Part shown: in pieces, positions 28,121 through 30,610 of the stretch
Numbering within the stretch: position 1 is the stretch's first letter
How the letters are laid out: each line of letters opens with the position of its first letter
The notes under the pieces: generated by a model
The model's input: only the letters and a program-made list of their open reading frames with translations
The model's database searches: none
Told to the model about the DNA's origin: nothing
From: a virus
Virus record (IMG/VR): IMGVR_UViG_3300021197_001481
Span: 1-64,000 of that record
Strand: one strand, 5' to 3'
Length of the DNA: 64,000 bases
Position numbers and translations under genes: made by a program

Positions 28121-30610
28121 GTGCCTTTAAAAATATTCGGTGGGTCACTTCTCCTACCACTAAAAATTGATGGATATACCTTCGATAAACTCCCATATGC
28201 TCCGGGAGTTGATGAAAGATTTTCCACACAATTAAAAGATCAACTGCCGGATTTCGTACTAGAAAATTACGAAACATTTGTTCAATTTGTAGAGGCATAT
28301 TATGAATGGTCCGAACAACACGGAAACCCAAGAGCAGAGGGTGTTCGATTAAACACATACAATGATATTGATGAAACTCTTGATTTATTTTTGGAGTATT
28401 TCAGAAATACTTACATTAAAGATTTTCCATACAAACTAGCAGACGGAGCAAACGAAAAAACTCTAATCAAAAATGTTGGTGATATGTATCGGTCAAAGGG
28501 GTCTAAGGCATCCTTTGATTTGTTGTTCAGGGTTTTATTTGATACATCAATTGAAATTAATTATCCCAAAGACAGAATTCTTAAACTATCAACTGCCACA
28601 TTTGATGACAAACAATTCATAAGAGTTGCACCTCTCATTTCAATTGATGAAGCAAAGACATTAGAAAATAGTCTTCTTGTACAAAAATCTAAATTCAAGA
28701 AAGAGATAACTGCGACAGCATTAATTGATCGTGTAGATTATGTTCATGAAGGTGGATTTGACTTTTTCTCTCTTGCCGTACAAGATATATCTGGTACGTT
28801 CAATAAAGATACTTTTGTTGATGTTGTTACATCTGGAACCACATCTGCTGCATATTCTTTACCTGTATTACCAACACTACATTCTCTGAAAATAAATTCT
28901 GGAGGAACTGGGTATCAACTAGGAGATGAAGTAGATGTTTATGACTCATATGGAAATAGATTATTAAACGCAGCAATAAACAACATAGGTCCAATTGGGG
29001 ATATTCGTGGTTTTGAGTTCAAACAAAATTTTGGTGTTTATAGATCAGATCAATCTATTGGTTTTTCTTTCGATACCTTTAGCGGAACCGGAGCAAGTCT
29101 CTCAGCACTTGGCGAACAAGTCCTAACTGATGGACCAGACACATACAAAGACGACACCGGAAAAATTAGTGGTCGTTCCTTTATTCAAGATAGTTTCTTT
29201 TATCAAAACTATTCTTATATTATTCGAGTCAACAAAAGTCTAGAACAATTTGCAGATGCAGTTCGTCGCCTAGTTCATCCATCGGGAACATTGATGTTTG
29301 CAGAATACATCAATGAAGTTTCGATGTCTGGTGATGCTGGAATAACCACAGATAACCTAACAAGATTCGTTCCTGTCATCGGTCACTATCTTCCACACAC
29401 ATTTGGAACAACTATTGATCCCCGAGGGTTTACTCTAGATGCGGTTCACACTGATTTTTATCCACTTGGATACAACGGTCAAGACGGCAACACGTTGGGG
29501 GAATTTATCGGGATTACATTAGCAGCAGGAATAACAGGAACTCCTCACCTTTTTCCACATCTTGGACTTACACACGACCCACTAACAGTTCATAGTAACA
29601 CGACCAACACGCCTTATACCCTCAAACCTTTTAATAATGTAGAAACCAGAAGGACTATTATAAATGGTGCGTTAGGATCTACTGGATATATTGGACTAAC
29701 AAGTGACTCTATTGGAGAACACGCAGGACTCATGGGATTTTTCCCAACGGGTTCCAGTAGAATAAGCACCATCGGTCCGGTGGGGGTTTTTGGCAGTGGA
29801 ATTACTCACTACGGTGGTTACACATCTCCACAAGAAACCAGTCTTTCTGGTGGATTCTCTGGTGGTCAAATTGTCCAAATCGTCGGGACCGACTCCGCAA
29901 CAGCAGACTACTGGATTGTGTATCGTCACCCTACTCACTTAGGACTAGAGGGATTGGGAACAACTGGTACAAGGGAAGTTGTTCGTATTCCAATGCAACC
30001 AGTACAAGCAGGCGGGCAGAACATAGCAACAATTGCACCAGATTCTAGCGGTTATAATTTTGAAGAAACAACTGGGATTACAATAAACGGAACACCATAC
30101 AGTATTGGAGAAATAGTAACACAGACAAGACCAAGAGAACCAATTGCCATAGGAAGAGTGATTAAATTTGATCCATCTGCATTTGGTAATCAGGGATCTG
30201 TTGCAGACGGCATCGCACCATCCGATCCACTGTATAATCTCGATATTGATATACTTGAAGTTGAGGTTTTAAATGGTAAGTTTACCACGGGACTCATATC
30301 AGGAGATCTCAATAAGGATGGCAAGGTCGATGGACTTGATCTTTCATTATTACTTTCTAATTTTGGTCTAACCGGTGAGGGAGATTTAAACGAAGATGGA
30401 ATTGTTGATGGCGGAGATCTCGCTGGTCTTCTCGCATCTTGGGATCAACTTCCGAAACCAATCATAGGTGAGACTTCTGGAGGATCTAGACTAGTTGATT
30501 CTTCGTTTAATAACAACATATATACTAGTATAACTCACGATACAAGTTGGATGGATATACCAATCAGCGTTATGGTAAATGATATCCAGTATAGTAACTT
30601 AACAAACTGA
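28121..30610 (+). CDS. gp7: Baseplate wedge subunit gp7-like with C-terminal dockerin-like insertion
   Basis: QLPDFV..F.QFVEAYYEW, YRSKGS..SF.LLFRVLF, IQDSFFYQNYSY, LVHPSG; between gp6 and gp8; GDLNKDGKVDGLDLSLLLSNFG..GDLNEDGIVDGGDLAGLLASW. Confidence 0.75.
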   Translation: MPLKIFGGSLLLPLKIDGYTFDKLPYAPGVDERFSTQLKDQLPDFVLENYETFVQFVEAYYEWSEQHGNPRAEGVRLNTYNDIDETLDLFLEYFRNTYIKDFPYKLADGANEKTLIKNVGDMYRSKGSKASFDLLFRVLFDTSIEINYPKDRILKLSTATFDDKQFIRVAPLISIDEAKTLENSLLVQKSKFKKEITATALIDRVDYVHEGGFDFFSLAVQDISGTFNKDTFVDVVTSGTTSAAYSLPVLPTLHSLKINSGGTGYQLGDEVDVYDSYGNRLLNAAINNIGPIGDIRGFEFKQNFGVYRSDQSIGFSFDTFSGTGASLSALGEQVLTDGPDTYKDDTGKISGRSFIQDSFFYQNYSYIIRVNKSLEQFADAVRRLVHPSGTLMFAEYINEVSMSGDAGITTDNLTRFVPVIGHYLPHTFGTTIDPRGFTLDAVHTDFYPLGYNGQDGNTLGEFIGITLAAGITGTPHLFPHLGLTHDPLTVHSNTTNTPYTLKPFNNVETRRTIINGALGSTGYIGLTSDSIGEHAGLMGFFPTGSSRISTIGPVGVFGSGITHYGGYTSPQETSLSGGFSGGQIVQIVGTDSATADYWIVYRHPTHLGLEGLGTTGTREVVRIPMQPVQAGGQNIATIAPDSSGYNFEETTGITINGTPYSIGEIVTQTRPREPIAIGRVIKFDPSAFGNQGSVADGIAPSDPLYNLDIDILEVEVLNGKFTTGLISGDLNKDGKVDGLDLSLLLSNFGLTGEGDLNEDGIVDGGDLAGLLASWDQLPKPIIGETSGGSRLVDSSFNNNIYTSITHDTSWMDIPISVMVNDIQYSNLTN

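Follow-up and report, generated by a model that had tools for sequence, protein, structure and literature searches.

The question raised by this locus is what a pair of dockerin-like calcium loops is doing inside a baseplate wedge gene of an uncultured phage. The DNA analysed here (the window) comprises positions 1-64,000 of an IMG/VR virus record of 86.8 kb (IMGVR_UViG_3300021197_001481; CheckV completeness 46%), and its positions 30302-30444 on the plus strand encode GDLNKDGKVDGLDLSLLLSNFGLTGEGDLNEDGIVDGGDLAGLLASW, which corresponds to residues 728-774 of an 829-amino-acid (aa) gp7-like protein. This translation is exactly the one given by an earlier sequence-only reading, which took the segment for a dockerin-type pair inserted into the core wedge protein gp7 and supposed that six displayed copies could give calcium-dependent adsorption by mimicking anchored proteins of the host, or could dock accessory enzymes onto the virion. 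According to the data presented below there is little room for doubt that a module with the dockerin fold has really been inserted here into a loop. As to its role, we tentatively prefer a docking module that is exposed, depends on calcium and is directed at a partner in the host envelope, giving the baseplate an auxiliary hold, and assign to this explanation a probability of roughly 0.45.

The pair is built of two segments joined by a short linker:

30302-30447, plus strand: dockerin-fold insert, residues 728-776, recognised by Pfam Dockerin_1, structure matches and ligand conservation
Segment 1: calcium loop D729-D740, followed by a helix at about 738-746
Linker: LTGEG
Segment 2: calcium loop D755-D766, followed by a helix at about 764-773

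Dockerins bind calcium through loop positions 1, 3, 5, 9 and 12, and all ten canonical ligand positions are occupied here by D or N (D729, N731, D733, D737 and D740 in loop 1; D755, N757, D759, D763 and D766 in loop 2), each loop preceding an amphipathic helix. The whole gp7-like protein passes the Dockerin_1 model of Pfam with 26.3 bits (cut-off 22.9), and its relatives score from 19.0 to 33.3 bits per single stretch, or 26.5-28.4 bits when weaker stretches are summed with their in-frame neighbours. Since either half of the insert taken singly stays under the cut-off (20.9 and 13.9 bits), while its eight sequence matches in the PDB are weak (E 0.15-0.86) and a related pair in another protein of the window, P0113, also passes EF-hand models, one may suspect a chance, low-complexity stretch rich in D, G and N, or a calmodulin-type EF-hand pair. 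Several observations speak against such an origin. In the six-frame translation of the window a 13-residue regular expression for the calcium loop found six matches, distributed among three proteins and including two in the gp7 insert, as opposed to none in 200 shuffles. No comparable reading was found on the opposite strand of 30302-30444, and the stretch is, therefore, neither a product of chance nor a wrong-frame effect. Seven of the eight PDB sequence matches are dockerins, the pair is conserved in 15 homologues, and no EF-hand family of Pfam matched the gp7-like protein at E ≤ 0.01. The composition of the insert is ordinary for the gene that carries it (guanine-plus-cytosine content, GC, 0.43 versus 0.39, with similar GC at third codon positions). 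When 50,697 phage records were searched with the insert by tblastn, nothing was obtained at E ≤ 0.01, the sensitivity for a 47-aa motif being low, and a search of BFVD gave no match at E ≤ 0.001.

The predicted structure leads to the same assignment. AlphaFold was applied both to the whole gp7-like protein, for which the mean predicted local distance difference test value (pLDDT) was 55.8 and confident modelling was confined to residues 160-340 and 610-810, and to residues 596-829, for which mean pLDDT reached 78.0 and the predicted template modelling score (pTM) was 0.67. Across the insert the means of 10-residue blocks were 74-90. In both models the insert is placed between two strands of a small beta-barrel, the parts of which flank it in the gene:

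29966-30301, plus strand: N-terminal part of the barrel, residues about 616-727, ending in strand 710-718 (ILEVEVLNG)
30448-30607, plus strand: C-terminal part of the barrel with the tail, residues 777-829, beginning with the conserved P-I-[IV]-G strand 781-783

Superposition of the insert on solved structures gave the following values, where rmsd is the root-mean-square deviation:

2ozn_B: Z 8.2, rmsd 1.4 A, 51 aa, 33% identity (C-terminal model)
2vn5_B: Z 6.5, rmsd 3.0 A, 54 aa, 33% identity (C-terminal model)
2y3n_D: Z 6.4, rmsd 2.2 A, 49 aa, 29% identity (C-terminal model)
6kg9: Z 5.8, rmsd 2.7 A, 52 aa, 36% identity (C-terminal model)
2y3n_B: Z 9.3, rmsd 2.0 A, 59 aa, 29% identity (whole-protein model)

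Foldseek aligned the model with 2y3n_B at TMt 0.80 and probability 1.00. All structural matches of the insert itself are dockerins, and EF-hand proteins are absent from the 50 structural matches listed for the C-terminal model. Thus, the models predict for this segment the three-dimensional fold of a dockerin, and the dockerin-type pair proposed by the sequence-only reading is supported both by the Dockerin_1 profile and by the predicted fold. A chance stretch or a calmodulin-type EF-hand pair is contradicted by shuffles, homologue conservation, profiles and structure matches alike and should be regarded as extremely improbable. The barrel itself (model residues 21-208, a range that spans the insert) resembles gp7 of Klebsiella phage KP1 (9f4a_AY, residues 761-847) weakly, with Z 5.9, and N-terminal barrels of the HerA/F1 type with Z 4-5, all these values lying in the range that the tool calls common.

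The identity of the carrier follows from several independent signs, one of which is the order of genes around it:

25826-26206, plus strand: gp25 homologue (PF04965 GPW_gp25)
26206-28107, plus strand: gp6 homologue (PF21379 Gp6-like_1st)
28121-30610, plus strand: gp7-like baseplate wedge protein P0003, 829 aa, GTG start, assigned by Pfam, PHROG, synteny and Foldseek
30618-32558, plus strand: baseplate wedge subunit in the gp8 position, 646 aa (phrog_438 'baseplate wedge subunit', E 3.4e-50)

The gp25/gp6 pair is additionally covered by phrog_261 and phrog_219. The 829-aa protein, which is encoded between the gp6 homologue and the next wedge subunit, matches Pfam PF23786 Baseplate_wedge with 39.3 bits (cut-off 27) and phrog_17744 'baseplate wedge subunit' with E 6.6e-53. 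Rank 1 in the Foldseek search with its model belongs to 5iv5_BJ, a chain of the T4 baseplate of about 1000 residues, taken as gp7 by its length (E 1.1e-4, probability 1.00), and the other top match is 9f4a_A0 of Klebsiella phage KP1. In the VIA comparison model residues 160-347 were aligned with residues 763-853 of the T4 chain at Z 10.6. The N-terminus MPLK.FGGSLLLPL is kept across the gp7-like homologues. The same wedge order, gp25, gp6, gp7, gp8, was found in phage Melnitz-3, and the gp8-position subunit is kept in relatives both with and without the insert. Consequently, the statement that the carrier is a gp7 homologue was borne out by the Baseplate_wedge match, by the gene order and by the top Foldseek match to the T4 baseplate. 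That the insert belongs to the "core" of gp7 did not hold: the site lies in a variable, lineage-specific C-terminal barrel, which is free of the insert in 16 of 34 relatives. In tblastn searches the proteins of cultured T4-like phages that are annotated as baseplate wedge subunits align only with query residues from about 8 to 417, and not one of 275 matching cultured-phage records covers 80% of the protein. As judged from these alignments, its C-terminal third is specific to the lineage. The middle of the protein, poorly modelled by AlphaFold, is also variable in length, and further lineage-specific insertions of 15-26 aa are present in P0005, P0012, P0017 and P0034-P0038 after reference positions 409, 462-469, 511 and 551.

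A search of 5.8 billion proteins yielded 109 relatives of the gp7-like protein, and 34 of the 36 closest metagenomic ones, 50-80% identical to the protein of the window, were aligned, with exclusion of short P0018 (694 aa) and P0037 (530 aa). The full pair is present at the insertion site in 15 of these 34 homologues. In 16 others VEVLNGxF is joined to RPIVGxxSG by a short turn of about 10 residues without any insert, and the flanks are conserved in both groups. Of the remaining sequences, P0011 bears a decayed pair, from which 13 aa are deleted and ligands are missing, the copy in P0017 is truncated to the first segment, and P0027 carries at the same hairpin site an unrelated longer insert, for which no Pfam match was found. 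It was assumed from the sequence alone that the pair interrupts a continuous structural element as a domain inserted into a loop, and this is what the continuous flanks of 16 homologues and the position between two strands of the barrel demonstrate. The site thus tolerates differing loads (none, 48 aa or the longer insert of P0027), as would fit a solvent-exposed loop, and it represents a hot spot for domain grafts.

For the history of the pair a maximum-likelihood tree was built from the alignment without the insert columns and rooted, by assumption, on the four most distant rows. All carriers fall into one clade of 22 rows (support 100 in the Shimodaira-Hasegawa-like approximate likelihood ratio test, SH-aLRT), within which a subclade of five rows lacks the pair. 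Given this distribution, the aligned sequences require at the least a single gain, together with one loss and two decays. The module is dispensable, also for assembly, since there are relatives that are without it or have lost it. Each of five related IMG/VR records carries the pair in gp7, two of the five having an additional carrier, whereas complete genomes of five cultured relatives (Melnitz-3, BUCT-ZZ01, S-SSM4, P-TIM40 and vB_Psh_XG4) contain no Dockerin_1 match at E ≤ 0.1. By this comparison the module is a lineage-specific acquisition rather than a general feature of gp7.

Conservation within the insert was estimated for 14 distinct carriers, P0015 being dropped as nearly identical to P0014. 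Pairwise identity was distributed as follows:

Ten calcium-ligand positions: 0.89
Gly6 and hydrophobic core: 0.92
Helix surface (positions 10, 11, 14, 15, 18 and 19 of each segment): 0.28
Whole insert: 0.58
Flanking barrel: 0.60
N-terminal region: 0.71

For the insert, comparison of five DNA sequences gave a proportion of nonsynonymous differences (pN) of 0.21-0.31 as compared with 0.62-0.94 for synonymous ones (pS). A finer estimate of the ratio of nonsynonymous to synonymous substitution rates (dN/dS) was tried and abandoned: synonymous sites are saturated and several distances undefined, so that it supports just the statement that dN is well below dS. Based on the identities of 0.89 and 0.92 for ligands and core versus 0.28 for the helix surface, one can conclude from these alignments that the fold and the metal sites are maintained by selection and the helix face varies freely.

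Such a pattern has a bearing on the first serious rival of the docking module, namely that the pair is a structural calcium module without any outside partner, which stiffens or decorates the gp7 barrel or makes a contact within the baseplate, for instance with a neighbouring wedge or the base of a fibre, and is retained for stability in calcium-rich seawater. Conservation limited to residues that determine the fold, with the surface free to vary, agrees with this explanation, as do the relatives that manage without the pair. At the same time, one would not expect a tightly packed brace where a different and longer insert can be received as well. The distribution of the module beyond gp7 is also difficult to reconcile with a structural role.

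When all six frames of the complete record were searched with Dockerin_1, two further carriers were detected, both situated in the window:

302-1372, plus strand: P0112, 356 aa, the N-terminus of which is signal-peptide-like; a dockerin-like pair is internal, at nucleotides about 752-895
1423-2451, plus strand: P0113, 342 aa, with a serine-protease-like N-terminal domain (GDSGTP motif) and a C-terminal dockerin/EF-hand pair at nucleotides 2242-2403

P0112 matches Dockerin_1 with 28.4 bits and has a homologue on another viral contig (L174). For P0113 the score is 28.9 bits at the protein level and 31.7 bits in the six-frame genome search, and its pair passes both EF-hand_6 (34.8 bits) and EF-hand_1. 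By Atlas features the N-terminal 270 aa of P0113 lie close (0.97) to clusters named 'Serine protease family protein', but Pfam registered no peptidase family at E ≤ 0.01 and sequence matches in the PDB cover the calcium pair only, so the identification of P0113 as a serine protease from the GDSGTP motif and Atlas features is no more than a lead. Neither P0112 nor P0113 has a PHROG match. Their GC content (0.455 and 0.445) is slightly above the window mean of 0.406. The two genes are adjacent to each other, and the single exact copy in the window of the T4 late-promoter consensus, TATAAATA, is found at 1383-1390, in the 50-nucleotide gap directly upstream of P0113. This motif is not enriched in the window (1 copy versus 3.25 expected), nor is ATAAATA (7 versus 13.5 expected).

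Scanning of IMG/VR with sequence patterns revealed six more viral loci with the pair, namely the homologue of P0112, three proteins with an M43 peptidase domain, a leucine-rich-repeat (LRR) protein and an EF-hand/dockerin protein. The M43-type metallopeptidases and the LRR protein have the pair at the C-terminus:

L177, 3062-4492
L178, 3077-4249
L179, 699-1850, assigned from its near-identical pair region alone
L176, 968-4195

GC content of these viral contigs (L176-L179) is 0.33-0.49. Peptidases joined to a dockerin tag are found repeatedly in viruses and likewise in Planctomycetota. As it is present in three otherwise unrelated proteins of a single phage, the module can be described as a portable tag. 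The occurrence of the same module on three unrelated phage proteins, one of which has a signal-peptide-like N-terminus and another bears it as a C-terminal tag, and on viral peptidases elsewhere is the behaviour of a portable targeting tag rather than of a brace specific to one fold, and we consider a purely structural role rather unlikely, even if it deserves attention.

The closest proteins outside the gp7 family are secreted proteins of bacteria, in which the pair occupies the extreme C-terminus and is 45-64% identical to the phage insert. Among them there are a subtilisin-like protein and a zinc metalloprotease, recognised by reading their sequences, and a C-type lectin and a beta-helix protein, recognised by precomputed Pfam domains. 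A scan of cellular genomes, with patterns derived from four sequences (three bacterial, one from the phage), gave at least 80 loci; among the 80 listed, with one genome per species, 68 bear the label Planctomycetota, 7 just that of 'uncultured bacterium' and 5 those of other phyla, the tally being biased by the choice of patterns. In five Planctomycetota genomes (G006-G010, the metagenome-assembled genomes behind L108, L131, L103, L112 and L097) at least 25-124 Dockerin_1 matches each were counted, and none of the five has a Cohesin match above the Pfam cut-off, one sub-threshold match scoring 21.8 bits. Planctomycetota were considered as the host or a recent donor; they were rejected as the host, and a recent transfer from them is unlikely: GC content of the bacterial loci listed is 50-74% (median 67%) as opposed to 40-42% in the phage clade, and the insert is not compositionally foreign to its gene. 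A distant origin of the pair is conceivable. In a passage of Andrei et al. 2019 (PMC6461901) a non-cellulosomal, peptide-degrading cohesin/dockerin system, the "planctosome", is hypothesised for freshwater Planctomycetes.

If the pair is a docking module, it should have a partner, and the classical pairing of dockerins with cohesins suggests where it might be looked for. One may imagine that gp7 is a docking site for accessory proteins encoded by the phage itself, a cohesin-like domain of which plugs onto gp7 and produces a cellulosome-like assembly on the baseplate. A search for PF00963 in six frames of the 86.8-kb record and of the records of five relatives, which addressed Pfam-type cohesins, gave no match at E ≤ 1 in any of the six. 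These records are 13-46% complete, leaving room for a partner gene in their unsequenced part, and the structural open reading frames (ORFs) without a family in the neighbourhood of gp7 (23558-24700, 24966-25808, 38294-40087 and 40095-41159) offer further candidates. The enzyme-like P0113, however, carries a dockerin and not a cohesin and therefore cannot plug onto the dockerin of gp7, while P0112, if exported as it appears to be, would put the shared partner outside the cytoplasm, in which virions assemble. Besides, relatives that carry the pair and those that lack it do not differ in the baseplate and fibre genes nearby, except for an already variable fibre slot. The last conclusion was drawn from tblastn presence or absence of 21 window ORFs in six loci with the pair and nine without it. 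The only ORF that tracks the pair is 23558-24700, which is present in five of the six loci with it (the sixth has no flank there) and in none of the nine others, among which enough upstream flank is available only in L017 and L020, L018 reaching the slot partly. It encodes 380 aa with repeats rich in Gly, Ser and Asn, resembles a right-handed beta-helix when judged by eye and has neither Pfam nor PHROG match; the slot that it occupies differs in gene content between loci with and without the gp7 pair. Matches of P0112 and P0113 registered in pair-bearing loci are probably dockerin pairs matching each other. Taken together, these data make docking of phage-encoded accessory proteins onto gp7 highly doubtful, and the accessory enzymes docked onto the virion in the sequence-only reading find no support in the six incomplete records.

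The absence of cohesin matches in the six incomplete phage records, as well as of Pfam cohesins above the cut-off in the pair-rich genomes of Planctomycetota, can also be cited in support of a structural module with no external partner. P0112 looks exported, and one can assume on this ground that the partner belongs to the cell envelope and not to the assembling virion. Folding of dockerins requires calcium, the free concentration of which is low in the cytoplasm and high in seawater, and a role outside the cell fits a fold with this requirement. In T4, according to Leiman 2010 (PMC3004832), there are six copies of gp7 per baseplate, one in each wedge, and the protein is described there as peripheral. 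By analogy with T4, six peripheral copies of gp7 per baseplate would be a fair inference for the uncultured phage as well.

Within the preferred explanation, that of a docking module aimed at the host envelope, the pair would acquire its fold with calcium once the virion reaches seawater and would then act as an autonomous docking tag binding a component of the host envelope, perhaps a cohesin-like or some other surface protein. Such docking would provide an auxiliary, calcium-dependent grip of the baseplate on the cell, and the tagged signal-peptide-like P0112 and protease-like P0113 would be directed to the same partner. The mimicry of anchored host proteins suggested by the sequence-only reading fits both the likeness of the insert to C-terminal bacterial tags and the presence of the tag on P0112 and P0113. 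Several circumstances weigh against this explanation. Exposure of the module on the baseplate is presumed, and the whole-protein model is of poor quality (mean pLDDT 55.8). The signal peptide of P0112 is a hydrophobic N-terminal stretch judged by eye, which is why it is called here signal-peptide-like. In cellulosomal dockerins the helix-surface positions form the face contacting cohesin, and their hypervariability in the phage insert suits changing partners and equally no partner at all. No cohesin partner turned up in the phage record or in five fragmentary records of its relatives, and the short dockerin type may work without classical cohesins, as one can assume from dockerin-rich Planctomycetota genomes having none above the cut-off. 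Finally, loss or decay has affected the module on no fewer than three occasions, so any benefit from it must be conditional.

An extension of the docking model, which we regard as improbable, is a "dockerin tag" system run by the phage, in which gp7, an exported protein and a serine-protease-like enzyme are all addressed to one docking site of the envelope other than a classical cohesin. If it is true, the virion adsorbs via the machinery that the host uses for anchoring its own exoproteins, and tagged proteins made after infection coat or cut the same site, for example in superinfection exclusion or in the release of progeny. It would then be a phage hijack of bacterial surface display in the open ocean and a clue to the receptor of those dockerin tags that are very abundant, without cohesins, in bacteria of marine and fresh waters. 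Host recognition by uncultured marine T4-like phages is largely unexplained, and their baseplates have no recognisable counterparts of several peripheral proteins of T4. The module provides a testable handle in this respect and can be used as a bait for the receptor and perhaps for the host. Short dockerin-like tags, numerous in some aquatic bacteria without recognisable cohesins, make up a wider puzzle, and the phage copy suggests that the partner of the tag is located on the cell surface.

The rest of the window agrees with a T4-like virus. Its GC content is 40.6%, no tRNA genes were found in the 64 kb, and it contains the structural module of a T4-like myovirus, with tape-measure-like, hub, tube, sheath, neck, gp53, gp5-like and terminase proteins. 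In its large terminase the virus shares about 60% identity with Methylophilales phage Melnitz and with marine cyanomyoviruses (Kyanoviridae). The carriers of the gp7 insert make up a clade of uncultured marine T4-like (Kyanoviridae-like) myoviruses. Megablast of window positions 26000-33000 against phage records produced no match. Some other products deserve mention. The gp5-like hub protein (19559-20464) has just 301 aa; the protein of 1030 aa encoded at 20466-23558 contains collagen triple-helix repeats (Pfam Collagen, residues 419-460); and a fibre-like protein of 1903 aa (32567-38278) has DUF4815 and a phage tail-collar domain. The 1030-aa and 1903-aa proteins are probably fibres encoded on either side of the wedge genes.

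A comparison with known systems places the insert between several of them. With dockerins of the cohesin-dockerin systems (PF00404) it shares two tandem 12-residue calcium loops of the form D-x-N-x-D-G-x-x-D-x-x-D with a helix after each, and its model superposes on solved dockerins with rmsd 1.4-3.0 A at 29-36% identity. The structures in question are those of C. perfringens NagH (2OZN chain B), the type II dockerin of B. cellulosolvens (2Y3N), the dockerin of C. cellulolyticum (2VN5) and Doc0917 of C. acetobutylicum (6KG9/6KGF). Unlike classical dockerins, the phage insert is shorter (47-48 aa), has a linker of 5-8 residues without the middle helix and resides in a loop of a baseplate protein instead of the end of a secreted enzyme. 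Closer in form are the C-terminal pairs of Planctomycetota, which have the same short architecture with D-L-x-x-L-L-x-x-W-G helices, and both the Planctomycetota and the viral pairs are attached to peptidases as well as to other proteins. In Planctomycetota, however, the pair occupies the very C-terminal region, and a tail containing Cys frequently comes after it, whereas in gp7 the pair is internal. With gp7 of T4 (5IV5, 5HX2) and KP1 (9F4A) the carrier has in common the Baseplate_wedge region, the order gp25-gp6-gp7-gp8 and repeated small beta-barrels. Assignment of its C-terminal barrel to a particular domain of T4 gp7 is weak (Z 5.9), and gp7 proteins of the T4 type have no dockerin, unlike the phage protein described here.

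No description of a dockerin in a baseplate or tail protein of a phage came up in a full-text search of the literature, in which subscription journals are largely absent, the nearest paper dealing with a carbohydrate-binding module. Automatic annotation of gut viromes has already labelled a protein of an uncultured myovirus 'Dockerin type 1', and the theme of a dockerin on a phage is, therefore, not unique to this window. What is new here is the marine setting, the short form of the tag, its site in a gp7 loop, its sharing by three proteins and the lack of a detected cohesin. Accessory adhesion domains displayed on virions are well known, among them the Ig-like domains of T4 Hoc and carbohydrate-binding modules in the "evolved" distal tail proteins of siphophages. 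The insert resembles them as a small, autonomous and dispensable graft on a structural protein, variable between close relatives, and differs from them in its dockerin fold and in its scaffold, the barrel loop of a myovirus gp7.

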